Notes under the pieces: generated by a model | Database searches by the model: none | Told to the model about the DNA's origin: nothing | What the model saw: the letters and a program-made list of their open reading frames with translations, nothing else | NCBI GenBank assembly: GCA_016235455.1 | Contig: JACRKZ010000049.1 | Location: 1 to 63,519, forward strand | Reading direction: 5' to 3' | Source: Armatimonadota bacterium | GTDB lineage: Bacteria > Armatimonadota > UBA10988 | Length of the DNA: 63,519 nucleotides | Translations under genes and position numbers: made by a program | In this document: positions 26,810 to 41,752 of the stretch, in pieces | Layout of the letters: each line of letters opens with the position of its first letter | How positions within the stretch are numbered: position 1 is the first letter of the stretch

Positions 26810-27760
26810 ATGCGCATGCTGCTGATGATAGTGCTGGCCAGCCTGTTGCCGGCGGTGGTCGACGCAGGACCGTCGCCCGACCTCGGCGCGCACTGCATGG
26901 CGGCACTGCTGGCCAAGCAGGCCGGCCGGCCCGACGCCGCCGTCAGCGAACTGCACGCCGCGCTGGATATCGACCCGAACTACCTCGAAGCCCACTGGAT
27001 CCTGGCCTGGGTGCTCCACGACCGCGGCCAGAAGAGCGCCGCCATCGCCGAGTTCGCCCAGGTGGCCCGCATCGATGACGGTGGCACCTATGGCCGTGAC
27101 GCGCAGAAGACCATCGACCGCCTCACCGCGCCGCCACCACCGCCGCCACCACCGGCCGCCGGGCGAGCGCTCGTGGCGCTGACCTTCGACGATGGACCCG
27201 ATCCCAACCTGACGCCCAAGCTGCTTGACCTGCTCCGTGCGCGCGGGGTCAAGGCCACCTTCTTCATGCTCGGCCCGCTGGTCAAGCGTTACCCGGCCAT
27301 CGTGAAGCGCATCGCCGACGAAGGGCACGAGGTAGCCGTCCACGCCTGGGACCACCGACTACTCACCGGCATGAGCGCGGCAGGCGTGCGGTCGCAGATG
27401 GACCGCACCCGAGACGCCATTGCGGCCGCCTGCGGCGTCACGCCGCGGGTCATGCGCCCGCCCTACGGCGGGCACAACGCCATGGTGCGCAACACCGTGG
27501 GCATGCCGGTCATCCTGTGGGATGTGGACCCCAACGACTGGCGAGACCGCAACAGCGGCACCGTGCGCCGACGCATCGCCAACGGTATGCGTCCCGGCTC
27601 GATCGTGCTGATGCACGACATCCACGCCACCACGGTAGCCGCCGTGCCGGGCATTCTGGACGATGCGGCCGCCAAGGGCTTGACGCCGGTCACGGTTTCT
27701 GACTTGATTGGCGGAGCCAAGGCCGGCTCGGTGTGGACGCGGGTCAAACCCCGGGACTAG
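26810..27760 (+). CDS. Secreted polysaccharide deacetylase (CE4/NodB) with N-terminal TPR-like helices
   Basis: NodB motifs LTFDDGP, HAWDH, RPPYG, WDVDPNDW and LMHD. Poly-Pro linker and signal peptide. Confidence 0.88.
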   Translation: MRMLLMIVLASLLPAVVDAGPSPDLGAHCMAALLAKQAGRPDAAVSELHAALDIDPNYLEAHWILAWVLHDRGQKSAAIAEFAQVARIDDGGTYGRDAQKTIDRLTAPPPPPPPPAAGRALVALTFDDGPDPNLTPKLLDLLRARGVKATFFMLGPLVKRYPAIVKRIADEGHEVAVHAWDHRLLTGMSAAGVRSQMDRTRDAIAAACGVTPRVMRPPYGGHNAMVRNTVGMPVILWDVDPNDWRDRNSGTVRRRIANGMRPGSIVLMHDIHATTVAAVPGILDDAAAKGLTPVTVSDLIGGAKAGSVWTRVKPRD

Positions 27761-27791
27761 CCACGCCGCCGGCGCCGCTCGGAGGCCCGCC

Positions 27792-30700
27792 ATGCGTTGG
27801 ATCGCGCCGTCGTGTCTGCTGCTGTGTGTCGTCTGTTCGGCCCAGGAGCCGCTGGCCGGTCTGCACCGCATCGCGGTCGACGACTGCGGCCGCGAAGGCG
27901 CCCAGCCACGACTGGTCACGGGCGGCAACTGGACCTACCCCGCCGAGGCCGTGCCCGTCGCCAAGGTGCCCGCGGCCGATCCGCTGCGCACCGTGGCCTT
28001 CGGCAGCAGCGTGGTCTACCGCTATCAGGGCCTCAAGGCGGGCGCGACGTACAAACTCCGCCTGAGCTTCCTGTCCGACAGCGCCGAACGCCGCGTGCGC
28101 GTGCGGCTCGACGGCCAGGCGATCATCGCCGATCTGGCGCTGCCCCAGGCCGAGCCGATACAGCGCGTTATCTACGTGCCCACGACCAGCGTCGCGGCGG
28201 GTGTGTGCGAGCTGTCCATCGACCATCTGGCCGGCCCGAACGCGGTCATCAGCCTTATCGAGCTGTTCTCCAGCGATGCCGAGCGCCTGCGCAGCCTGAC
28301 CGTGCGGGCCGCGGGCGACCTGGCCGGCACGATCAGCGGGCACGTGGTTGACGCCGAGCAGGCGCCGGCCGCCAACGTCGCCGTGAGCCTCACGCAGCCC
28401 GCTGGCGACCAGAAGCTGACTGCGACAACCGGCGCCGACGGTGCCTTCCGCATCGCGGTTCCGGCCACGTGGCGCGGCGGCGGCGATGACGCACTGACGG
28501 TCACCGCCAAGGCCGCCGGCATCACCGGCACGACCACCGTGGCCCGCTGCGAGGTGGCGCCGCCGCGCCTGACGCCGTTGCCCGTCGCGCCGGCCGCCGT
28601 GTCGCTCGATGGCACCTGGAAGCTGACCACCGCCGCCGGCGAGCTGCCCATCGAGGTGCCCGGCGAATGGGTCATGCAAGGCGCCAAGGTCGCGCCGAAC
28701 GAGACGGTCACCTACCAGCGCAGCCTGTCCGTGCCGGCCGCGTGGACCGGCCAGCGGGTCAAGCTGCGCTTCGACGCGGTCTACAGCCAGGCCGAAGTAC
28801 TTCTCGACGGCAAGGCGGTCGGCGGCCATCTGGGCGGGTTCACACCGTTCGAGATCGACATCACCGACCAAACCACGCCGGCCAGCACGCACGACCTGCG
28901 CGTACGGGTCACCAGCGAGAGCGTGGCCGACCGGCTGGCGAGCGGCTCGCAGTATGCGGCGCACCCACTGGGCGGCATCAGCCGCAGCGTACGGCTCTGC
29001 GCGGTGCCCGCGGCGCATCTGGCCCGGCTCCATGCCACCACCACCTTCTCGGCCAACTGGCGCGACGCCACGGTGCATGTGGCCTGGACCGTGGTCAACG
29101 AAGGCCCGGCCGCCGCCGCGAGCAGCCTGGCGTTGGGCCTCAGCGGCCCCGACGGCAAGCCGGCCGCCACGGGCACGGCCAAGGTGCCGGCGCTGGCCGC
29201 GGGCGCCGAGGCGGCGGGCTCCGCCGAGCTGACCGTGACCAACGCCCAGACCTGGGACCCGGAGCATCCGCGGCGCTACCGCCTGTCCGCCAGGCTGGCC
29301 GACAACCCGCCGGTCGAGCGGCTGATCGGCCTCAAGCAGGTGCAGGTGCGTGGCAACCAGGTGTTCTGCAACAACCGGCCCATCAAGCTGCACGGAGTCT
29401 GTCGCCACGAAGTGCACCCGCGCTATGGTCGCGCGCTGCGTGATGGCCTCTGGCACCGCGACGCCGAGCTGTTCAAGGCGGCCAACATCAACTTCGTGCG
29501 CACCAGCCACTACCCGCCGGCCGAGGCCTTCCTCGACGCCTGCGACGAGGTTGGCATCTTCGTCGAGGACGAAGCACCGTTCTGCTGGGCGGCCAACGAT
29601 CCCGCCAACCGTGCGGTGACCGTCCGCCAGGCGCTGGAGATGGTCGAGCGCGACCTGAGCCATCCCAGCGTGCTGCACTGGTCGGTGGCCAATGAGACGC
29701 AGTGGGGCGCCAACTTCGATGCTTCCGCGCAGGCAGTGGCCCGACTGGACCCGAGCCGGCCGCGCATCTTCTCTTATGGCGACCTGGACATCGCTTCCTG
29801 GCACTATCCCGGCCCCAACGGCCCGGCCAACGCCGCCAAGTCGGCCAAGCCGGTGCTGTTCGACGAGTACTGCCACCTGAACTGCTACAACCGCCGCGAA
29901 CTCGACGCCGACCCTGGCCTGCGCGACGAGTGGGGGCTGGCCCTGGCCGCCAAATACGACAAGATGTGGGCCACGCAAGCCTGCCTGGGCGGGTCCATCT
30001 GGGCCGGTATCGACGACATCTTCCGGCTGCCCGACGGCAAGGAGGTCGGCTATGGCTCGTGGGGGCCGGTGGACGGCTGGCGGCGACCCAAGCCGGAGTA
30101 CTACCATGTGCGCAAGGCCTACTCGCCGATCCGCGTGCTCGACCTGAAGCAGCCGCTCCACCAGCCCGGCCAGCCGGTGGTACTGCGGGTGGAGAACCGG
30201 TTCGACTTCACCGACCTGAACGACGTGACCTGCACCTGGCGGGCCGGTGCCGCCGAGGGTCAGGCCAAGTTGGAAGGCGCGCCGCATCAGGTAGGCAAGC
30301 TGACACTCGCTCTGCCCGCTGGCTTTGCGCGCGGCACTGTCGACCTGCGTTTTGGCACTGCCAATCAGGAGGACATCGACGCCGAGACCATCGACTTCGG
30401 CGGCCCCGTGGCGACCGAGACGGCGGCCAAGGCGGCCGCGCCGGTGACCTACAGCGAGACGCCCGAGCAGCTCGTGGTGACCGATGGCCGGGCGCGGTGG
30501 ACCGTGAGCCGCGCCACGGGACAACTGGGCGCTACCGTCGACAACCGGCCCGTGCTGGCGGGCGGCCCCAGCCTGATGATGCTGCCGCTCGCGCCGCAGC
30601 AGGGCGGCACCACGCACGGCACGGCTTTCCAGCCTTGGAACGACCTGTGCACCAACTGGAAGCTGGTCCGGCTCGACGGCAAGCTGGACGGCGATGCCGC

Positions 30701-31274
30701 GGAGGTCACCATCGCCGGCTCGTACAGCGAGGCCGAGGTGATCTGGTCGCTGCGCTTCGCGAGTGGCCGGTCGCTCAGCCTCAAGTACCGACTGACGGCC
30801 AAAGCCGCGACCAACCCACGGCAGATCGGGCCGGTGTTCGACGTGGTGCGCACCTGCGACACGCTGACCTGGGACCGTGTCGGGCAGTGGTCCAGCTACC
30901 CGGCAACTCACCTGGGTCGGCTGCGCGGGACGGCCCGACCCGAGCCCCCGCTCGGCCCCAGGTCGGCGCTCGGCGGGCCAACCTGGCCATGGGAGCTCGA
31001 TCCCTCGCCGCTGGGCTGCAACGACTTCCGCGCCTCGCGCCGCGGTGTGACCACCGTCAGTCTGACCGACCGCACCGGGCTTGGCTGGCAGGTGCGCCCA
31101 CTCGGCGGCACCGCGCGCGCCTGGGTCGATGGTGAACGGTTGCGCCTGCTGGCCGCCACGGTCGACTGCGGCACCAGCGAGGGTTTCGTGGCCTCGCTGT
31201 TCGGCGCCATGCGGCATCCGCTCAAGCCTGGTGACGTTGTCGAAGGAGAGATTCTGTGCGGGCTGGTAGAATGA
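27792..31274 (+). CDS. Glycoside hydrolase family 2 (beta-galactosidase-like) with N-terminal malectin-like and Ig-like modules
   Basis: LRFDAVYS, GGFTPFEIDIT, LHGVCRHE, RTSHYPP, WSVANE and FDEYCH. Confidence 0.88.
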   Translation: MRWIAPSCLLLCVVCSAQEPLAGLHRIAVDDCGREGAQPRLVTGGNWTYPAEAVPVAKVPAADPLRTVAFGSSVVYRYQGLKAGATYKLRLSFLSDSAERRVRVRLDGQAIIADLALPQAEPIQRVIYVPTTSVAAGVCELSIDHLAGPNAVISLIELFSSDAERLRSLTVRAAGDLAGTISGHVVDAEQAPAANVAVSLTQPAGDQKLTATTGADGAFRIAVPATWRGGGDDALTVTAKAAGITGTTTVARCEVAPPRLTPLPVAPAAVSLDGTWKLTTAAGELPIEVPGEWVMQGAKVAPNETVTYQRSLSVPAAWTGQRVKLRFDAVYSQAEVLLDGKAVGGHLGGFTPFEIDITDQTTPASTHDLRVRVTSESVADRLASGSQYAAHPLGGISRSVRLCAVPAAHLARLHATTTFSANWRDATVHVAWTVVNEGPAAAASSLALGLSGPDGKPAATGTAKVPALAAGAEAAGSAELTVTNAQTWDPEHPRRYRLSARLADNPPVERLIGLKQVQVRGNQVFCNNRPIKLHGVCRHEVHPRYGRALRDGLWHRDAELFKAANINFVRTSHYPPAEAFLDACDEVGIFVEDEAPFCWAANDPANRAVTVRQALEMVERDLSHPSVLHWSVANETQWGANFDASAQAVARLDPSRPRIFSYGDLDIASWHYPGPNGPANAAKSAKPVLFDEYCHLNCYNRRELDADPGLRDEWGLALAAKYDKMWATQACLGGSIWAGIDDIFRLPDGKEVGYGSWGPVDGWRRPKPEYYHVRKAYSPIRVLDLKQPLHQPGQPVVLRVENRFDFTDLNDVTCTWRAGAAEGQAKLEGAPHQVGKLTLALPAGFARGTVDLRFGTANQEDIDAETIDFGGPVATETAAKAAAPVTYSETPEQLVVTDGRARWTVSRATGQLGATVDNRPVLAGGPSLMMLPLAPQQGGTTHGTAFQPWNDLCTNWKLVRLDGKLDGDAAEVTIAGSYSEAEVIWSLRFASGRSLSLKYRLTAKAATNPRQIGPVFDVVRTCDTLTWDRVGQWSSYPATHLGRLRGTARPEPPLGPRSALGGPTWPWELDPSPLGCNDFRASRRGVTTVSLTDRTGLGWQVRPLGGTARAWVDGERLRLLAATVDCGTSEGFVASLFGAMRHPLKPGDVVEGEILCGLVE

Positions 31275-32580: not shown

Positions 32581-33261
32581 TCAGGGCTCGAAATGGTAGT
32601 CGCCATTCGGGTTCGGATAGACGATGTACTCGGGTCGCACCCACTTGGCATGGCCGTCGCAGAAGGCCACGTTGCTGCCGCCCAGATGCCGGCCCGAGGC
32701 GATGTTGCCCGGCGGGACCAGGTAGGCGTCGTCCGTGGTGCCTTGCACGCCCGTGCTCTCCTCAAGGATGAGGAAAGTGCCCGCGGGTGCCTTGATCTTG
32801 GTGATCTTGCGCCCTTGGTGGTAGCCCTGGATGCCCGGGTTGTTCTGGCTCAGCATCGCGTTCATGGCGTAGCTGTTGCCCTGCTTCGACTGGTCAATCG
32901 GGCAGACGAAGACCTGCGCGTTCTTCAGGTAGTCGTTCAGGCTGCCCAAGGACGGGTTGAAATCGCCGGGGTTGCCGTTCGGGTAGGCGCGGTACCACAT
33001 CCAGCCGCCGGTCTGCAGGTTGCCCGCGGCGTTGTCCCACATGGAGGGCAGGCGCCCGTCCCAGTCCTGCACATACATGGCCACGCTGTTGCCCACCTGC
33101 TTGAGGTTGCTGAGGCAACTCGCGCCCTGCGCCTTGACCCGCGCCTTGGCGAAGACCGGGAACAAAATGGCGGCCAGAATCGCGATGATCGCGATCACCA
33201 CCAGCAACTCGATCAGTGTGAAACCGCGACGCCGTGTGTGCGTGTGCATGGCCGTCTCCAT
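32581..33261 (-). CDS. Prepilin-type cleavage/methylation and H-X9-DG domain protein (DUF1559-like)
   Basis: [25 protein letters not shown] and canonical [16 protein letters not shown]. Start may be 33249. Confidence 0.9.
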
Positions 33262-33340
33262 CCCCTGATAAGCCTATGCCCGTCATCAACACAAATGAAA
33301 CAGCAACGGAGTCTTAGTTGCGCAACAATCGGCATACTGC

Positions 33341-33875
33341 TCAACGTTCGTAGCGAAAATGGCCTTCGGGGTCGGGGTAGCGCACCGCGTCCCAGCGCAG
33401 CCACTTGGCGTGGCCGTCGCAGAACGTGTAGTTGCCGCCGTCGATATGCCGGCCCGTGCCCACATCGCCGCCCAGCGGGTACTGGTAGCCGTCGTTGGTC
33501 GAGCCATGGTCGTATGGGACACTCGTAGATGCCGGCCGACTTCACGTACGGGTAGAGACTGCCATAGTCGGGCCGGAAGTCACCTTCGCGGCCGTTGGGG
33601 AAGCTGCGGTACCAGACCCAGCCGCCATAGCGCAGGTTGCCATCGGCGTGGGCCCACATGGCCGGCGGGTGCTGGTCGTAGTCGGAGGCATACATCAGCG
33701 CCGCCGTGCCAAGCTGCTTCATGTTGCTCAGGCAGCTGATTGAGTCGGCCTTCTCGCGCGCCTTGTGCAGCACGGGGAAGACAATCGCCGCCAGGATCGC
33801 GATGATCGCGATGACGATGAGCAACTCGACGATGGTGAAGGCAGCACTGCGCCTGGTCAAGGCCGGACCTCGCAT
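33341..33875 (-). pseudogene. DUF1559-like prepilin paralogue with an internal deletion and frameshift
   Basis: [17 protein letters not shown]...YECP, then a frame change near 33515 gives YDHGSTNDGY...[20 protein letters not shown]...FRYER*. About 49 residues present in the neighbouring paralogue are missing. Confidence 0.8.
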
Positions 33876-33911: not shown

Positions 33912-36900
33912 CTACCCGATTGTCATCTTCGGCAACATAACTGTCTGTGTGGTGCTCGGGTCGTAGGTGGCCTCGACGACGACCGGCGGCGGCGTGATCT
34001 CGGCGGCATCGGCGCGGGCGCGCAGTCGCACGCTGACCTCGGCCACCTGGTTGGGCGCCAGCGTGCCGATGGCCAGGCGCACGGCGTCGCCGTCGCGCGA
34101 GGCCAGCGCCTGCGCCGGCGCAAATCCGGCGGGTATGGGCAGCATCGCCGTCACGGCGGGCACGGCCTGATTGCCGGTGTTGCGCACGCGCAGCGTGGCC
34201 GTCACCTCGCCGCCGGGCGCTACCCGGTTGGCACTCCACGAGGCGGACACACCGAACCCGCTGGGCTGGGGCTCGGGCGCGACGGGGTTGTAGGCCAGCC
34301 GATAGGACCAAGCCGGTCTGCCGCGGCCACTGAAGCTGATCACCAGCGGCTGCGCGCCCGGCGCTGGCGAGGCCAACGTCACCACGCTGTTGGCGCCGGA
34401 GTCCGGATCGAGCGAGCCGCCGCCGACCTTGGCGCCGGCCAGCGTCACGGTCACCGCGCCGCGCGCCGCGCCCGGCGCGGGATCGACCGCGACCAGCGCC
34501 CGAACCGCGGCCACGGTGGCGCGCACCGAACCCCATGTGCCGTCCGGCTGCTGGCGGTGGCGCAGCCAGTCGGCGCCGCTGCGAGCGACAGCTGGGGCCA
34601 TGCGCGCGGCGGTGAGCGCCTGCACCACGAGCGCCGTGGTCTCCACGGCGGCGCCGCGACCCGTGGCTCCCGTGGCCACCGGCTGCGGGCCAGGATACCA
34701 ACTGGCGCCCTCGGGCCGGTCATCGCGCAGATTGACCAGCTTGCCCAGAATGGGTCGCGCTGCCTCGGCCCGGTCCAGCGCCTGCAACGCCTGCGCGGCG
34801 GCCACCAGCGTGTAGGCGTCGCCGGCGCCGGCCACACGTTCGGTGAGCTGGCTGGCCGCGGCGGCGACGCGCTCGGCCTGCGTACCCTCCAACCCGGCTA
34901 AGGAGGTTATGACCAGAGCCGCCGTGCGCAGCCCGCTGTCGGGCTGATCGAGCCCCAGCGCAGGGCCTTCGGCCAGCCACAAGCCCGATCCCGTCTGCTG
35001 CTTGGAGCCCAGCCAGTGCCGCGTGCGCAGCAGCAACGCGGGGTCGACGTCGGTGTAGTTGCCCACCTCGCGCAGCGCCACCAGCACCCGCGCAGTGAGC
35101 AGCTTGGACGGCGGCAGGCCGGCCGACGGCGCGAACCCACCCGTGGCCAGGCCCTTGCCGTCGTGTGCCTCGAAGGTCAGCAATCGCTGCGCCGCGCGTT
35201 GCGCATCGGGCAGCAGCCGGTCGCGTTGCGCGTCACTGGTCGCACCGCCCCCGCGCGCCAGCGACAGGCGCAAGGCGGCCGCCTCGGCTTGCGCGGCGGC
35301 CTCGTCCGCGGTGAACGCCGGGCGACGCACGGCGCGGCTGAGCGCTTGGTCCAGCGGCGCCCGCGGGTCGGCCCAGACCTGCAGGTCGAGCCGCCGGCCG
35401 GCTGCCGCGGCGGGCACATCCAGGGTCACTGTCTGCCTGTCGTCGAGAGTGCCCGTACGGCAGCGCTGTACGCGCGGGCCGCTGGGCACGACGTCGACCG
35501 CGCAGTCCTGTTCCGCGGTCAGGTCCGCGCTCTGGGCACGCACCCGCAGCTTGGCGCGTCCGGCCTCCACGGCCACCACCGGTACATTGAGCCGGAGCCG
35601 GCCGCCACGTGGCAGCAACACCCGCTGCGTCGGCGCGCTGGCCAGGTCGAGCCCGTTTTCCGCACTGGCGGTCAGCACCGCCGGCACCGCCAGATCCAGT
35701 GGGTTGGCGATGGTCACCGGCACGCTCAGGCGGTCGCCTTGGCACACCTGATCGGGCATATCCACCGACACCGCCAGGCGGGCCGGCGCCGGCAGCAGGC
35801 TCTCGGTGATCGCCGCTTGACCATCGGCGGCCAGCGCCTCGGCACGCACCTGCCACAGCCCCGAATGCGCGGGCCAACGCCACAGCGATTGGCCGCTGCT
35901 GTCGATATTGAGCAGCGAGCCGGGTCCTACCCCACTGGGCAGCCAGCGCTCCGTGCTGGCCGCGGCATCGACCGTGTCGAGTGGCGGCGGTGGGTCTAGC
36001 CGCGGATACCAGTTCGGCGCCGGTGCCACCGCGGACTCGGCCAGCCCGCGCGCCTGATTGCCCGCCAACCGCAGCCCGCCGGCCACGGCGCCCGCCACGA
36101 GCAGCGCGATGGCCAGCAGGCCATAGCCCGCCCAGGCACCTCGCCGATGCACCTGCGGCACCCGGCCCCAGCGGTGGCGCTCGGCGTGTGGCACGTACTC
36201 ATAGGGGTCGCGGTAAGTCTGGACCAGCCACAGCAGCGCGATCAGCAGCACCAGTGCGCCCACACCCGTGGCCACCCACGGGGCGCGTTTGAAGTAGGCC
36301 GTCTGCCGGCCCAACGCGCGAGCCTGGGCCTCATGGTAGCTGTTGGCTGCGGCCAGCGGCGCGTCGGGCGCCATCGGCTCACGCCACGCCGGCGGCCGGG
36401 ACACGCCGGTCGAGGCCACCATGGCGGCAACGCCCTTGGGGCTGGCGAAGAGCAGCAACTGGGCGGGCTTGGGCCGACCCTCGCCATCTTCGCAACGCAC
36501 GGAGACGCTGCTGTCATCGGCATCGCGTCGCGCCACCGAGATTCGCAGGTCGGACTGCGACGGCACATCGACGCGCGCGAAGCCCGTGCGCCAGCCACTA
36601 CGCGTGCCCGGCGCGTAGGCGCGCAGCAGCAACCGGCCGGCGACGCCGCGCGGCACCTCCATGACCAGCCCGCCGCTGCCGCGAGTCAGGCTCAGGCTGC
36701 GCGCCGAGATGCTGCGCCCGTCGGCCAGCAGATCGAGGTAGGCTGGCCCGGTCATCGATTCGGTGGCGCGTACCGTCACATAGACCGAGCGCGAGTCACC
36801 CACCGCGGCGGTCTGCACGGCCAGCGCGGCGCGTCCGTCGGCGGCGGTGAGCGCGAACTCCTGGTCGTAGCGGCGCCCCTCGGTCTCGGCGCGCAGTTGC

Positions 36901-38381
36901 AGGCGGTTGGCGCCGACACGCGGCTGCACCGAGAGCGTCGCGCGGCCCTGCGAGTCGGTCCACAACGAGGCGTGCTGGTCGTTGAACCAGGCGTCGATGT
37001 TGGCCAGCACCGGCGAGCCGTCGGGTCGTTGCGCGGTGAACGCCAAGGGGTTGTCGAGTCCGGCCACGAGGCCGGTGACTCCGGCATCGAGGGCCAGCAC
37101 CACGGCGCGCGGCGCCGCCGCCAGCCGGGCCTCGGCCCAGCCCTGCTCCGCATCCACCGACGTCACCCGCGCGTCGAGCAGCGCCAGCCCCGGCTGACTG
37201 AAACCGGGCGCTGGCAGCGAGAAGTCCCAACGGCCGGCGTCGTCGAGCTGCCCGCTGGCCGAGGCCACCGCGTCGCCCACGCGCAGGTCGATGGCCACGC
37301 TCGCGCCGGCGCTGGGTGTGCCGCCCGACGTGCTGGCCAGCACCGCGCCGCGCACCATCTGGCCCGCCACCACATAGCGTTCGGCGGTCTCCACGCGGCA
37401 GGTCAGCGCCTCGCCCAGCGCCGGCGTCAGCGCCAGGCGCCGCACACAGCGCGGCTCGTCGCCGAGTTGCAGCGTCACCGGCTGCGGCGACAGGTAGCGA
37501 CTGGTGGGCACGCGCAGCAGCGCCTGACCGTGGTCTGACAGCGTCACGCTGCCGCTGGCCAGGCGGACGCCGCGGCCCAGCAGCAGCCAGGGCACGGTCT
37601 GGCCCCCGACCGGCCGGCCGCTGCCGGCATCCACGGCTTGCACGCGTGCCACCAGGTCGCAGCCGGCCGGCACGCGCGCCGCGGCGGGATCGACACGGTA
37701 GACCGTGCGTCGCTGCAGGTCGAGCGCCAGGGCCGTGCCGGCCCAGCCCCAGGGGCTCTGCACGTGGGCGTAGAGGGTGGCATTGCCGGGCTCGAACTCG
37801 GCCGGCAAGGTCAGCCCGGCATCGACGCTGCCCTGGCCGTTGGTGCGCAGTTCGGCGAGCGTGGCGCGGCGGTGGCCCTGGGCCAGCACGAGCCGCACCT
37901 GGGCACCAGTCAACGGCTTGTCGTGGCCACGGTCGCGCAGCAGCACGCGCACCGCCACCGGCCGGCCCAGCAGCCACTGGTTCTCGGCCAGCAGGCGGCA
38001 TTCCACCGGGCTCACCGAGGGCGCCCACGGATGCAGCCAGAAGAGCTGGGCCAGCACCACCAGCAGCCCCAGCTCCAGCGCCCAGCGCAGTCGCGTGAGC
38101 GTGGGGGTCAGGCCAAAGCGATGCCACCAACGTTGCGCGGTGGACAGCTGTCGCACCTGCGCCATGACCTCGTCGACAAAGGCGTCGTCGGTGGGCCGGG
38201 GGGTGATGGTCTCATCGAGCAGGTCGATGAGCCGCGCCGCCTGGGCGAAATCAGCCACGGCCTCGGGGTGTTCGGCGAGGTAGGCTTCGACTGCCGAGCG
38301 CTCGTCGTCCGCGAGTTCCCCATCGAGATAGAGGGGGATCATGGCGACCAGATCGGCCTGGCTGTAGCGGCCAGTGGCCAT
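33912..38381 (-). CDS. Anti-sigma-factor-like N-terminal domain fused to a bacterial alpha-2-macroglobulin-like body (thioester motif absent)
   Basis: N-terminus IPLYLDGELADDERSAVEAYL followed by a TM helix. A2M-type segments include VSVDMPDQVCQGDRLSVPVTIAN, QRLLTFE, VETTAL, QQPDGTWGSVRATVAAVRAL and C-terminal LPIPAGF...ATYDP. Confidence 0.78.
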   Translation of the reverse strand: MATGRYSQADLVAMIPLYLDGELADDERSAVEAYLAEHPEAVADFAQAARLIDLLDETITPRPTDDAFVDEVMAQVRQLSTAQRWWHRFGLTPTLTRLRWALELGLLVVLAQLFWLHPWAPSVSPVECRLLAENQWLLGRPVAVRVLLRDRGHDKPLTGAQVRLVLAQGHRRATLAELRTNGQGSVDAGLTLPAEFEPGNATLYAHVQSPWGWAGTALALDLQRRTVYRVDPAAARVPAGCDLVARVQAVDAGSGRPVGGQTVPWLLLGRGVRLASGSVTLSDHGQALLRVPTSRYLSPQPVTLQLGDEPRCVRRLALTPALGEALTCRVETAERYVVAGQMVRGAVLASTSGGTPSAGASVAIDLRVGDAVASASGQLDDAGRWDFSLPAPGFSQPGLALLDARVTSVDAEQGWAEARLAAAPRAVVLALDAGVTGLVAGLDNPLAFTAQRPDGSPVLANIDAWFNDQHASLWTDSQGRATLSVQPRVGANRLQLRAETEGRRYDQEFALTAADGRAALAVQTAAVGDSRSVYVTVRATESMTGPAYLDLLADGRSISARSLSLTRGSGGLVMEVPRGVAGRLLLRAYAPGTRSGWRTGFARVDVPSQSDLRISVARRDADDSSVSVRCEDGEGRPKPAQLLLFASPKGVAAMVASTGVSRPPAWREPMAPDAPLAAANSYHEAQARALGRQTAYFKRAPWVATGVGALVLLIALLWLVQTYRDPYEYVPHAERHRWGRVPQVHRRGAWAGYGLLAIALLVAGAVAGGLRLAGNQARGLAESAVAPAPNWYPRLDPPPPLDTVDAAASTERWLPSGVGPGSLLNIDSSGQSLWRWPAHSGLWQVRAEALAADGQAAITESLLPAPARLAVSVDMPDQVCQGDRLSVPVTIANPLDLAVPAVLTASAENGLDLASAPTQRVLLPRGGRLRLNVPVVAVEAGRAKLRVRAQSADLTAEQDCAVDVVPSGPRVQRCRTGTLDDRQTVTLDVPAAAAGRRLDLQVWADPRAPLDQALSRAVRRPAFTADEAAAQAEAAALRLSLARGGGATSDAQRDRLLPDAQRAAQRLLTFEAHDGKGLATGGFAPSAGLPPSKLLTARVLVALREVGNYTDVDPALLLRTRHWLGSKQQTGSGLWLAEGPALGLDQPDSGLRTAALVITSLAGLEGTQAERVAAAASQLTERVAGAGDAYTLVAAAQALQALDRAEAARPILGKLVNLRDDRPEGASWYPGPQPVATGATGRGAAVETTALVVQALTAARMAPAVARSGADWLRHRQQPDGTWGSVRATVAAVRALVAVDPAPGAARGAVTVTLAGAKVGGGSLDPDSGANSVVTLASPAPGAQPLVISFSGRGRPAWSYRLAYNPVAPEPQPSGFGVSASWSANRVAPGGEVTATLRVRNTGNQAVPAVTAMLPIPAGFAPAQALASRDGDAVRLAIGTLAPNQVAEVSVRLRARADAAEITPPPVVVEATYDPSTTQTVMLPKMTIG

Positions 38382-38393
38382 GGGTAGCGGTTG

Positions 38394-39002
38394 CTAGTCC
38401 TCGTCCTCCAGCGCCAGGTCATGACCCAGGCGCTGGCGGAGCATCTCACGCGCGGTGCGCAGGCGATGCTCGACGGTGCTGGCGGGCAGGGAGAGGATCT
38501 CCGCGATCTGCTTGTAGCTCAGGTCATTGAGGTGCCGCAGCACAACAACCACGCGGTACTTGGTGGGCAGATCGTTGACCGCCTTGAGGACTTCGCGCCG
38601 CAACTCCTCGCGGCCATGCAGATCGGCGGTCGATTCAACAATCGCGTCGGCCGACGGCAGCGCCTCGGGATCGGGGAAGGAACCCTCGATGCTCACGGGG
38701 CGGTGCTTTTGACTGCGTAGCCAGCTCCGGCAAAGATTGCCCGCGATGGTATAGAGCCAACTGGAGAACTTGGCGCCCGGACGGAAGCGCGACAGTGCCG
38801 AGAAAGCCTTGATGAAGCTCTGCTGGGCCAGGTCGCGCGCCTCTTCCGGGTCGCCGGTGATGTGGAGTGCGAAGCCGTAGACAGGTTCGCGGTAGCGGTT
38901 CACGAGCTCAGCGAAATGCTCGGCATCGGTGCGGCAGAGCGCCACCACCGCCTCATCGCTGACCGCCTGCATGCCACCCGCTGCCTGAACCGTCTGTCGC
39001 AT
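38394..39002 (-). CDS. ECF-family RNA polymerase sigma-70 factor
   Basis: Region 2 FAELVNRY...EARDLAQQSFIKAF...FSSWLYTIAGN and region 4 LSYKQIAEILSLPASTVEHRLRTAR. Start 39002 has a GAGGG RBS; 38972 is an alternative. Confidence 0.93.
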   Translation of the reverse strand: MRQTVQAAGGMQAVSDEAVVALCRTDAEHFAELVNRYREPVYGFALHITGDPEEARDLAQQSFIKAFSALSRFRPGAKFSSWLYTIAGNLCRSWLRSQKHRPVSIEGSFPDPEALPSADAIVESTADLHGREELRREVLKAVNDLPTKYRVVVVLRHLNDLSYKQIAEILSLPASTVEHRLRTAREMLRQRLGHDLALEDED

Positions 39003-39143: not shown

Positions 39144-39176
39144 AAACCGCCTCGATCACCGAAGTGGTCGAGACGG
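39144..39176 (-). terminator. Rho-independent terminator after the small basic protein
   Basis: On the minus strand: CCGTCTCGACCAC-TTCG-GTGATCGAGGCGG followed by TTTGCTGTTTT. Confidence 0.75.
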
Positions 39177-39200: not shown

Positions 39201-39383
39201 CTATCGGTTGGACTCGGCCTGCTTGCGCTGCTTCTGCGCCTTCTTGCGCTTCTTGGCCCGCGATTCCTCGACGGCGCGCTTGCGGCCGCCGATCTCGCCG
39301 GCGATGTCGTCGTCCACGCGGCGGTCTAGCTCATGCAGACGCGCGGGTTCGAAGTCCTTCAATCGCTCCATGTCCAGAGCCAC
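39201..39383 (-). CDS. Small (60 aa) protein with Lys/Arg-rich C-terminus
   Basis: AGAGGAG RBS before GTG, host-like codon usage, and its own terminator downstream. Confidence 0.65.
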   Translation of the reverse strand: MALDMERLKDFEPARLHELDRRVDDDIAGEIGGRKRAVEESRAKKRKKAQKQRKQAESNR

Positions 39384-39508: not shown

Positions 39509-41752
39509 ATGGATCTGCGACTGCGGCCCGCGGACGAGTCCAGGCTGGGCTCGCTCCGCGCGGCCATCCTGAACTCGGAGTTCCGCGTGGCGCTGCATCG
39601 CGCCCGCACCTACACCAGTGCCTTTGAGGAAGCCGAGGCCGACGGCACGGCCTGGGTCGTGGCCAAGGCCCGCGCCTTCCGCGCGCATCTGCGCACGATG
39701 CCGCTGTGGCTACGGCCGGGCGACCAACTGGCCGGCTCGCTCACCGAGTTCCCCGGCGCCATGCCGCTTATCGTCGAGTTGGGCATCGGCGAGAACGGCA
39801 TCTTCACCGACGAGGACCCGCATCGCGCCGGCTACCTGCGGGGTGCGGTGCCCCAGGAGATCCGCGACTTCTGGCAAGGGCGCAACATGCGCGGACGTTG
39901 GCGCGGGTACATGACCCAGGTGCTCGACCGCGGGGCGCCCGACGCCGAACGGCTGCCCTACAAGTTCCTGAGCTGCCAGGGTCATCTCAGCCCCAGCTAC
40001 CGCGCTCTGTTGCGCTCGGGCCTCGGTGGCCTGCGCGAGCGCATCGCGCGGCGCCGCATGGCCGAGACCGATCCCTCGGCCAAGGAATGGCTGCTGGCCG
40101 CCGACCTGTGCGTGCAAGGCGTGTGCGAGTGGATCGGCCGCTATGCGCGGCTGGACGAGGTGGCGCGCGACCCGGAAACGGCCCGCATCGCCGCGCGGGT
40201 CGTCAGCGAGCCGCCCGAGACCTTCCGTGAGGCGCTGGCGCTGCTGTGGTTCTGTCACCAGGCCATCCACATCGAAGGCCATGGCTACTCCTGCACGCCC
40301 GACCGACTCGACCAGATCCTCTACCCCTTCTACCGCGCCGACCTGGCCGCCGGCCGGCTGACCAACGAAGACGCGCTGGCGCTGTGCTGCAACTTCGTGC
40401 TGAAGATGCGCGACAACACGTTCTGGTCGGTTGAGCACAACCTGACCCAGGGCATCAGCCTCGGCGGCTCGTCACCGAGAGGCGACGATCAGACCAACGA
40501 GCTGAGCTGGATCTGGCTGCGCGCGGCCGAGCTGATGGCGCTGCCGGAGCCGCTGGTCTGGGTGCGCTGGCACGAGCGCATCGACCGCGACTTCCTGGAC
40601 CGTTGCCTGACCACGCTGTCGGGCCGCACCTGCTTCCCGCTGTTTATGAGCGACACCACCGTGCCGTCCATGTTCATGGGGCTCGGCGTCGACCGCGACG
40701 ATGCGCACGACTACGTGGCCGTGGGCTGCAACGAGCTGGCGCTGCCCGGCAAGGCATACTTCAACCCGTGCGCCTGGGTCAACTACCTCGACGCGCTGTG
40801 GCGCGCCATGGCCCAGCCCGAATCCGAGCAGGGCTTCGGCCGGCTGCTGGGCGCCATCGAGGGGGTCATCCGGCAGCAGGTCGAGCGATCGTATGCCGAC
40901 GGCATGGTGGAGCTGGAGTTCCAGCGCCGCTATGCCCAGTCGCCCTTCACCTCGTGCTTCTTCGACGGCTGCGTCGAGGACGGCCACGACTTGGTGGACG
41001 GCACGCGCTACAACCTGCTGTCCTGCGGCGGCACGGCCTTCGCCAACCTGGTGGACTGCCTGTCCGCGCTACGCTCCGTGGTCTATGGCCCCCAGCCAGT
41101 CACACTGGCCCAGGTGCTGGTCGCCTGCGCCGACAACTTCGTCGGCCACGAGCTGCTGCGCGCCCGGCTTCAGGCGGCGCCCAAGCACGGCAACGACGAC
41201 CCGCGGGTGCTGGACATCATCCATCTGGTGGAGCGGATGCGCGACGAGGCGGTGGAAGCGGTCTGCTTCGACCCGCGCGACGGCGCGCCCTTTGGCAACA
41301 GCCACGTGGTGCGATCGTCGGCAGTGCTCGCCGGCCGGCACACGGGCGCCACGCCCGACGGCCGGCTGGCCGGTGAGCCGCTGGCCGGGTCGGTGGCGGC
41401 CGCGCACGGCGAGGAGCGTTCGGGGCCGACGGCGCTGCTGGCCTCGGTGCTCGCGCTCAGTCCGCGCAGTTGGCGCTCGGGCTACAACGTCAACCTGCGC
41501 CTGAGCCGCGACATGCTGACCGACCGGCGCGCTCGCGGGCGCGTGCGCGCCCTGCTCGACGCCTACTTCGCCGCGGGCGGCCAGGAGCTACAGATCAACT
41601 GCGTGGACAACGCCACGCTGCTGGCCGCGCGGGAGTGCCCGCACGAGTACCGCGATCTGGTGGTGCGCGTGGCGGGGTTCAGCGAGTTCTTCGTCAAGCT
41701 CGACCCGGCCCTGCAGGACGAGGTCATCAGCCGCGCGGAGCACCGCCTCTAG
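39509..41752 (+). CDS. Glycyl radical enzyme (pyruvate formate-lyase superfamily), substrate unknown
   Basis: C-terminal ELQINCV...YRDLVVRVAGFSEFF, Cys loop AVGCNE, GATPDGRLAGEPL and RLDQILYPFY. Confidence 0.9.
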   Translation: MDLRLRPADESRLGSLRAAILNSEFRVALHRARTYTSAFEEAEADGTAWVVAKARAFRAHLRTMPLWLRPGDQLAGSLTEFPGAMPLIVELGIGENGIFTDEDPHRAGYLRGAVPQEIRDFWQGRNMRGRWRGYMTQVLDRGAPDAERLPYKFLSCQGHLSPSYRALLRSGLGGLRERIARRRMAETDPSAKEWLLAADLCVQGVCEWIGRYARLDEVARDPETARIAARVVSEPPETFREALALLWFCHQAIHIEGHGYSCTPDRLDQILYPFYRADLAAGRLTNEDALALCCNFVLKMRDNTFWSVEHNLTQGISLGGSSPRGDDQTNELSWIWLRAAELMALPEPLVWVRWHERIDRDFLDRCLTTLSGRTCFPLFMSDTTVPSMFMGLGVDRDDAHDYVAVGCNELALPGKAYFNPCAWVNYLDALWRAMAQPESEQGFGRLLGAIEGVIRQQVERSYADGMVELEFQRRYAQSPFTSCFFDGCVEDGHDLVDGTRYNLLSCGGTAFANLVDCLSALRSVVYGPQPVTLAQVLVACADNFVGHELLRARLQAAPKHGNDDPRVLDIIHLVERMRDEAVEAVCFDPRDGAPFGNSHVVRSSAVLAGRHTGATPDGRLAGEPLAGSVAAAHGEERSGPTALLASVLALSPRSWRSGYNVNLRLSRDMLTDRRARGRVRALLDAYFAAGGQELQINCVDNATLLAARECPHEYRDLVVRVAGFSEFFVKLDPALQDEVISRAEHRL

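Follow-up and report, generated by a model that had tools for sequence, protein, structure and literature searches.

What is an alpha-2-macroglobulin (A2M) doing in the same polypeptide as an anti-sigma domain, directly behind the gene for an extracytoplasmic function (ECF) sigma factor? The question is raised by two adjacent genes on a 63,519-nucleotide stretch of DNA from an Armatimonadota bacterium (contig JACRKZ010000049.1 of assembly GCA_016235455.1, positions 1 to 63,519), here called the window: one for a sigma factor of 202 amino acids (38394..39002) and one for a fusion protein of 1489 amino acids (33912..38381, stop codon included). Both lie on the minus strand, to which all coordinates of the two genes and their parts refer. 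Few bacterial signalling systems are as abundant as ECF sigma factors, the Planctomycetota possess many of them, and in most cases the signal is not known. The role generally assigned to bacterial A2Ms is protection of the periplasm from proteases, and we know of no downstream signalling by them. Our best explanation for the whole, to which we give a probability of about 0.5, is an ECF sigma/anti-sigma switch with an A2M sensor, in which proteolysis of an outer linker would set the sigma factor free. The architecture and the relation between sigma and anti-sigma factor we regard as highly probable, and the chances that protease attack is the signal seem to us evenly balanced.

The sigma factor and its predicted partner domain

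To judge from its domain matches, the product of the upstream gene is an ECF (group IV) sigma-70 factor with only the sigma-2 and sigma-4 domains. It matched the Pfam models Sigma70_r2 (E = 5.7e-19) and Sigma70_r4_2 (E = 2.5e-15) and scored 126.2 bits against TIGR02937 (cut-off 42.9), while its best equivalog models in NCBIfam were of the SigW type, yet remained below their cut-offs (134.5 versus 209 bits). A GAGG lies 7 nt upstream of the start codon at 39002, and the orthologues start at the matching place. As the first-pass annotation of this DNA had described, the sigma gene ends 12 nt before the fusion gene: its TAG ends at 38394, the ATG of the fusion gene is at 38381, and the spacer between them, caaccgctaccc (38382..38393), contains no clear Shine-Dalgarno sequence on reading, which suggests that the two genes may be translationally coupled. 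The fusion frame is not a chance frame of high-GC DNA, since it has homologues at E values down to 0 and was modelled with a predicted local distance difference test score (pLDDT) of ~88.

Residues 1-90 of the fusion protein (38112..38381), which include the motif IPLYLDGELADDERSAVEAYLAEHPEA, are predicted to form a cytoplasmic class-I anti-sigma domain. A profile of five same-phylum N-termini matched the anti-sigma factor RsiW in the PDB (5wuq_C, E = 8.8e-4, residues 9-81); this was its only sequence match in that database under E 0.001, and the next anti-sigma factor, 3hug_B, followed at E = 0.92. Aligned by hhalign with 16 planctomycetal N-termini, most of which carry the zinc-binding motif HxxxCxxC, the same profile gave a probability of 96% (E = 4.8e-9). 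A protein-atlas search with residues 1-125 returned matches at 0.83-0.87 with zf-HC2 clusters among them, which is below the level at which such matches are counted and serves as a lead only. These sequence comparisons make it likely that the domain is homologous to known anti-sigma domains, although this copy stays below the curated threshold, and they uphold the earlier description of an anti-sigma-type N-terminus that lacks the zinc ligands.

We also modelled the complex of the sigma factor with residues 1-96. The interface score ipSAE was 0.80 in each of three runs, compared with 0.14 for the best of three controls; the mark applied to this score is reached by 58 of 80 solved complexes and by 2 of 110 mismatched pairs, counts that are only a rough guide here as own alignments were used. 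At least 89% of the contacts were common to the three runs and the pLDDT of the partner was at least 79. The modelled interface involves sigma residues 27-68 (sigma-2) and 134-197 (sigma-4) on one side and anti-sigma residues 16-22 and 47-80 on the other, and the model supports in silico a clamp formed by residues 1-90 on both sigma domains.

A macroglobulin body around a membrane hairpin

Only three 19-residue segments of the whole fusion protein reached a mean Kyte-Doolittle hydropathy of at least 1.6, with peaks starting at residue 98 (1.66), at residues 699-706 (up to 2.43) and at residues 748-756 (up to 2.15). The first-pass annotation had counted one transmembrane (TM) helix. That helix, TM1 (residues 97-118; 38028..38093), was recovered; it is followed by an invariant PW.P motif (P118, W119 and P121), and its hydrophobicity is modest in the window protein and exceeds 1.7 in the orthologues. 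The count overlooked two further hydrophobic helices, at residues 699-724 and 748-774, which make up a hairpin, TM2-loop-TM3 (residues 701-774; 36060..36281), around a conserved basic loop (residues 722-751; 36129..36218) that bears the motif RVPQVHRRGAW. With the N-terminus inside, three TM helices place both large soluble parts outside the membrane and residues 722-751 in the cytoplasm. The in silico evidence supports a three-pass membrane protein whose outer part is an A2M.

The two outer halves were modelled separately, each from an alignment of 40 rows. For the N-terminal half (residues 119-700) the pLDDT was 87.6 and the predicted template modelling score (pTM) 0.79, and the model contained five full beta-sandwiches and two further strands. 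Its best Foldseek matches were the beta chains of complement C3 and C4 (E ~1e-22, query TM-score, TMq, ~0.6 and target TM-score, TMt, ~0.56), and residues 119-633 (36483..38027) are accordingly taken as the macroglobulin-like (MG) domains MG1-MG5 and the first strands of MG6, the equivalent of the C3 beta chain. The C-terminal half (residues 775-1489; pLDDT 87.9, pTM 0.84) was modelled as beta domains, an alpha/alpha barrel (model residues 234-525) and again beta domains. Native CD109 was its best match (8s3o_A, E = 1.3e-34, TMq 0.70), and the further matches included the C3 and C5 alpha chains, A2ML1, TEP1, ECAM and Salmonella A2M. Native forms fitted this half with TMq values of 0.6-0.73, as against 0.33 for C3b and 0.39 for protease-induced A2M, which supports a native, closed arrangement in the model.

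The sequence matches are in line with these models. The Pfam A2M match at residues 836-899, the model strands and Foldseek place the rest of MG6, MG7 and the first half of CUB at residues 836-1005 (35367..35876); the TED alpha/alpha barrel covers residues 1006-1300 (34482..35366), with a Pfam TED_complement match at 1051-1297 (E = 1.2e-10); and a DUF11 match at 1379-1478 (24.8 bits, cut-off 24.6), together with model strands, marks the second half of CUB and MG8, the receptor-binding-type domain, at residues 1301-1489 (33915..34481). The A2M and MG4 matches were both below the Pfam cut-offs; the orthologue in genome G006 matched A2M_recep at 53.5 bits, and in the PDB the fusion protein found CD109 by sequence (E = 8.2e-7). 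As modelled, the outer part has the A2M fold, MG1-MG8 with CUB and TED, and the body of MG, A2M, TED-like and receptor-binding-like domains proposed from the sequence was thus recovered.

Since the N-terminal half resembles the C3 beta chain and the C-terminal half the alpha chain, the hairpin stands at the beta/alpha junction, which is the position of the bait. The Pfam coordinates of relatives likewise put it between A2M_BRD and A2M: in the planctomycetal protein P0008, A2M_BRD spans residues 520-656, the TM peaks start at 748-774 and A2M spans 859-948, and in a canonical A2M of the same phylum 230 residues without TM helices separate the two domains. The exposed soluble bait region within MG6 is replaced here by TM2-loop-TM3 and two variable outer linkers, both candidate baits. 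The linker before TM2 (residues 634-700; 36282..36482) had a pLDDT below 50 at model residues 539-565 and shows indels among relatives; the linker after TM3 (residues 775-835; 35877..36059) had a pLDDT below 50 at model residues 1-46. Variable, disordered and indel-rich, the two linkers behave like bait regions.

The CxEQ thioester motif was not found in the window protein, in which the alignment places Thr1024 (35310-35312) in the Cys column and Glu1027 (35301-35303) in the Gln column. The Cys is missing in all seven family-level sequences, and GCFEQ is preserved in the same-order orthologue. Having no thioester, the window protein cannot act as a covalent trap. Of the earlier proposal that an A2M scaffold serves as the sensor of a sigma switch, the architecture stands, but the soluble bait gives way to a TM hairpin and the thioester is absent, so that the mechanism needs revision.

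Hairpins of this kind also occur elsewhere. Two proteins of the same phylum, L022 (G007:C171) and L023 (G022:C167), have an N-terminal anchor and a mid hairpin, no thioester and no anti-sigma domain; their loop differs, lacking the window-type motif, and there is no sigma gene nearby. Further A2M genes with CxEQ carry 6-9 hydrophobic segments at the bait position (L078, L080, L081, L105, L110 and L111, with record titles of Verrucomicrobiota and Chloroflexota-type metagenome-assembled genomes, and L016 of the same phylum), again without an anti-sigma domain or a neighbouring sigma gene. Membrane insertion at the bait of A2Ms extends beyond the sigma-linked family.

Linkage, conservation and genomic surroundings

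A word-indexed search returned three full-length relatives at 35-45% identity, and among 40 genomes of the same phylum orthologues were present in four, three of the same family and one of the same order. A sigma gene lies directly upstream in all four orthologous loci, encodes a protein 60-75% identical to the sigma factor of the window, and either overlaps the fusion gene or is 12 nt apart from it. No neighbours beyond this pair were conserved across the four loci. Nor did any of the 19 other same-phylum A2M loci, which lack the anti-sigma domain and mostly encode a signal peptide and CxEQ, have a sigma-like open reading frame (ORF) in its flanks.

When the seven family-level sequences were compared in pairs, mean identity was highest in the cytoplasmic loop (62%), followed by the anti-sigma domain (54%), TM1 (52%), TM3 (47%) and TM2 (40%). 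It fell to 31-34% in the MG, CUB and TED domains and was 27% and 26% in the linkers before TM2 and after TM3, respectively. It is thus the cytoplasmic and membrane parts that are under the strongest selection, a pattern one would expect if the protein signals. In a FastTree phylogeny of the last 700 residues (57 rows), the 10 window-type rows formed a single clade (support 99) that was sister (100) to the two hairpin-only, thioester-less proteins L022 and L023; the tree is unrooted and has long branches and SH-like support only, and no order of events is drawn from it.

Searched with HMMER against 1.84 billion representatives, residues 1-700 gave 309 matches at E <= 0.001, of which 15 were at <= 1e-30; the subfamily of the window protein itself comprises about ten full-length representatives. 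Among the best 150 matches, 43 start at or before query residue 30 and hence include the anti-sigma domain. Seven matches (P0145, P0149, P0150, P0157, P0161, P0167 and P0189) combine a zinc-type anti-sigma domain and a TM helix with an MG-type region of ~650 residues and 6-8 hydrophobic segments, in proteins of ~1050-1250 amino acids without CxEQ, which suggests that an anti-sigma domain joined to an MG ectodomain constitutes a separate module.

The window protein has branched off, and diverged, from a large and mainly planctomycetal family in which both the zinc motif and the thioester are retained. One member, P0008, combines HCxxCxxC and a TM helix with the full Pfam A2M set, a mid hairpin and GCFEQ. 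With the first 760 residues of P0008 as the query, at least 1000 matches were obtained, and among the 120 listed HxxxCxxC was present in 114, CxEQ in 116, an N-terminal TM helix in 112 and at least two mid hydrophobic peaks in 108. The source databases call these relatives "alpha-2-macroglobulin family protein", "MG2 domain-containing protein", "YfaS" or "hypothetical", and three of the 120 already bear the name "anti-sigma factor RsiW" (JGI pipeline).

Relatives are encoded on 572 stretches of species-representative genomes, of which we examined the best 80 loci, scoring those with at least 900 nt of upstream DNA and counting an N-terminal match when it began within the first 30 residues; at 3 loci with and 19 without such a match the upstream DNA was too short for scoring. 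An ECF-type sigma ORF on the same strand ended within 400 nt at 27 of the 30 scored loci with an N-terminal match and at 4 of the 28 without, with a fifth (L075) having its sigma gene further off. Two of the three exceptions among the 30 (L040, which belongs to a Singulisphaera genome, L066 and L093) had a sigma-like ORF on the other strand. Members without the zinc ligands, such as L050, L053, L067 and L069, still have the upstream sigma gene, and the 27 loci shared no neighbours beyond the two genes. The record titles were of planctomycetal type (Gemmataceae, Pirellulaceae, Phycisphaerae and other Planctomycetota), with four relatives titled Armatimonadota (L058, L079, L107 and L109). The zinc-type fusion family is large, unstudied and common in databases, and its linkage to sigma genes is widespread. 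On all three points by which the first-pass annotation proposed to judge its reading, the in silico results leave it standing: the modelled complex argues for binding of the sigma factor by the N-terminal domain, the Foldseek searches of both modelled halves support an A2M fold of the body, and homologues are linked to ECF genes in both surveys.

The surroundings of the cassette in the window are of mixed content, with prepilin/DUF1559, aminotransferase, GH2 and pyruvate formate-lyase (PFL)-like genes among the nine neighbouring ORFs scanned. The G+C content is 74.6-74.7% across the fusion gene (34001-38000), 64.5% and 66.2% in the flanking intervals and ~69% in most of the window; an Ala/Arg/Gly-rich protein or a foreign origin could be the cause. 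Downstream lie two paralogous genes for prepilin-type (N_methyl) plus DUF1559 proteins (33213-33875 and 32581-33261, both on the minus strand), the first of which begins 36 nt past the stop of the fusion gene on the same strand. The pair is not retained beside the cassette in the four orthologous loci and falls outside the conserved unit. Between the sigma gene and the PFL-like gene is a 60-codon ORF rich in Lys and Arg (39201-39383, minus strand) with a GTG start and a GGAG 8 nt upstream, preceded by the only sigma-70-like promoter match in the scanned region (TTGACA-17-TAGCAT, 39446-39418, minus strand). An inverted repeat with a T-rich tract follows this ORF (hairpin 39151-39172, minus strand) by manual reading only; the terminator scan gave no minus-strand entry in the interval from this ORF to the sigma gene. 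The PFL-like glycyl-radical enzyme gene (39509-41752, plus strand, 747 amino acids) is divergent from the cassette and is followed by an ADP-ribosylglycohydrolase gene and a GT4 gene. Further away, a GH2-family gene (27708-31274, plus strand, 1188 amino acids) has a fully open antisense frame of 1157 codons without a Pfam match (27744-31217, minus strand), which is a typical high-GC shadow ORF.

A proposed switch, its rivals and known systems

In the explanation that we favour, TM1 leads out of the cytoplasm to MG1-MG6, after which the chain re-enters the membrane as the hairpin and resumes outside as MG6/7-CUB-TED-MG8, a course that the in silico evidence supports. The linkers at 634-700 and 775-835 would act as bait and be cut by foreign or envelope proteases in the periplasm, upon which the A2M body would rearrange or be trimmed away. 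A site-2 protease might then gain access to TM1, as it does with RsiW and RseA, or the change might be relayed through the TM bundle and the loop to the anti-sigma domain; by either route the sigma factor would be set free at the end. The genome has three matches to M50 site-2 proteases, but this family was also found in all 14 control genomes, so its presence is weak evidence. Because only two genes are conserved together, the single output that can be deduced is re-expression of the cassette itself.

Several observations weigh against this explanation. The zf-HC2 match on residues 11-33 scored 19.9 bits, under the Pfam cut-off of 22.2, which the same-order orthologue L028 passes with 22.7 bits. 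HxxxCxxC is absent from the first 120 residues of the window protein, of P0001 and P0003-P0005 and of the orthologues, so that the fusion protein is not a zinc-associated anti-sigma (ZAS) factor in the strict sense. Many sigma/anti-sigma complexes have been solved, and the score of the modelled complex may reflect likeness to these rather than binding by this particular copy. The anti-sigma factors known to undergo regulated intramembrane proteolysis are single-pass proteins, and in place of the single TM helix of the RseA/RsiW type there are three here; a cut in a linker next to the hairpin would leave ~520 outer residues on TM1. The hairpin per se is not a signalling device, since it is also present in L022 and L023 without anti-sigma domain or sigma gene, and a protein without a thioester may not deal with proteases at all. 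The split of MG6 around the hairpin is deduced from strand counts, and as the two halves were modelled separately their packing is tentative. Finally, autoregulation is assumed, and no shared ECF-type promoter was found upstream of the sigma genes: an alignment of the 258 nt upstream of five of them contained only a CGTATAAT-like stretch in three to four of the five, with no -35 element at a usable spacing, and the pattern AAC-N15-18-CGT matched at scattered places in 7 of the 34 upstream regions but not in the window.

The absence of the thioester opens the way to a different input, which we think possible, at about half the probability of the favoured explanation: the A2M body could be a binding or conformational scaffold that answers to a ligand, a surface or the state of the envelope, the binding being relayed to the anti-sigma domain, without cleavage, by way of the three-helix bundle and the conserved cytoplasmic loop. 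Thioester-less A2M relatives with roles other than inhibition exist, C5 being an example. The loss of the thioester in 7 of 7 family-level sequences would fit such a role, as would the high rank of the loop and TM helices in conservation, the lack of the loop motif in the two proteins that have the hairpin but no anti-sigma domain, and the degenerate state in the window protein of FPET, the motif found after the bait in canonical relatives. Against it, the canonical thioester of most listed planctomycetal relatives points to a protease-reactive ancestor, the variable and disordered linkers resemble bait, and no ligand-binding feature was identified. Were the protein instead a protease shield first and a regulator second, its body would work on the inner membrane, either trapping proteases non-covalently or guarding sterically, while its anti-sigma domain would do no more than couple consumption to resynthesis, and the cassette would be its own whole regulon. 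This we consider unlikely, despite the finding that the sigma and fusion genes are all that the 4 orthologous and 27 planctomycetal loci have in common, the retained thioester of the relatives and the native, spring-loaded arrangement in which the C-terminal half was modelled: the genome has a separate canonical A2M frame (G000:C4:17864-21178, minus strand, 1847 amino acids, with MG2 and TED matches above cut-off), this subfamily lost the thioester while its cytoplasmic parts were the best conserved, and no promoter was found upstream of the sigma gene.

A further variant, which we likewise rate as improbable when taken as a whole, is a conversion of the A2M "mousetrap" into a single-use device for transmembrane signalling with a membrane-threaded bait loop. 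The cytoplasmic turn DPYEYVPHAERHRWGRVPQVHRRGAW would then contact the anti-sigma domain or the sigma factor, and a cut in a linker would trigger rearrangement of the spring-loaded body and release the sigma factor mechanically, without intramembrane proteolysis. If so, the hundreds of thioester-bearing planctomycetal relatives would both capture the attacking protease in a covalent bond and signal the attack to the nucleoid. The least probable view, to which we give very little credence, is that the N-terminal domain is a decayed remnant that does not hold the sigma factor, and that a membrane-anchored A2M is merely co-transcribed with an ECF sigma gene. The sub-threshold zf-HC2 match, the missing zinc ligands and an NCBIfam anti-sigma match far under its cut-off (22.9 versus 225 bits) could be taken for decay, but the domain is among the most conserved parts of the protein, far ahead of the body, its modelled complex clearly exceeded the controls, and the zinc-less planctomycetal members keep their upstream sigma gene.

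Whichever input applies, the cassette joins ECF signalling to A2M and offers a concrete candidate input, proteolysis or rearrangement of the A2M body, for a sigma family in at least two phyla; it also reveals a membrane hairpin in the bait position of an A2M. If rearrangement of an A2M is indeed read in the cytoplasm, this would be a new way to signal across the membrane, and a modular protease-to-transcription reporter would be on offer. The first-pass annotation knew of no characterised example, and in our full-text literature searches, which do not extend to supplementary tables, no description of an anti-sigma/macroglobulin fusion was found; as an entry in databases, however, the fusion is common. 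A search of the main texts of PMC7826278 and PMC7406223, as distinct from the supplements that hold their group-by-group descriptions, gave no passage with macroglobulin, A2M or MG2. The ECF sigma/anti-sigma pair is of a known kind, and its putative sensor, a membrane-threaded, thioester-less A2M, is undescribed.

RsiW and RseA are single-pass proteins of ~200 amino acids with small outer domains and are cut by dedicated site-1 proteases. The cassette resembles Bacillus subtilis SigW-RsiW (PDB 5WUQ) and RseA/sigma-E in the co-transcription that links an ECF sigma factor to a membrane class-I anti-sigma factor, and differs from them in the 1489 amino acids, the three TM helices, the A2M outer part and the missing zinc ligands. 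The planctomycetal zinc-type fusions, such as P0008 and P0006, share the order of anti-sigma domain, TM helix, MG domains, hairpin, TED and receptor-binding-type domain as well as the upstream ECF sigma gene; unlike the window protein, to which they are ~25-28% identical, they mostly keep HxxxCxxC and CxEQ, and the hairpin turn of P0006, read from its sequence, is very short compared with the 30-residue loop of the window protein.

Type I bacterial A2Ms are lipid-anchored. The window protein has the MG-CUB-TED-MG8 fold of the type I proteins ECAM/YfhM (5A42, 4ZIU) and Salmonella A2M (4U48), which its C-terminal half matched in Foldseek at E = 1e-30 to 4e-30 and TMq 0.56-0.57. Those proteins are periplasmic, with a soluble bait region and CxEQ, whereas here a TM hairpin takes the bait position, the N-terminus is an anti-sigma domain and the thioester is gone. 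No penicillin-binding-protein gene was seen among the nine neighbouring ORFs scanned. MagD of Pseudomonas aeruginosa, a type II A2M, is part of the six-gene mag operon and has no anti-sigma domain. The window protein resembles it as an A2M homologue without a thioester, the trait described for MagD in the parts consulted of PMC3735191 and PMC5764988, and type I A2Ms are described, in the part consulted of PMC4498604, as guarding the periplasmic face of the inner membrane. None of the same nine ORFs was mag-like, and the conserved partner here is the ECF sigma factor. With complement C3 and C4 the likeness is one of halves, the N-terminal one aligning with the beta chain and the C-terminal one with the alpha chain, so that the hairpin replaces the processing/anaphylatoxin (ANA) segment; C3 and C4 themselves are soluble, thioester-bearing, proteolytically processed and eukaryotic, and in these respects the window protein differs from them.

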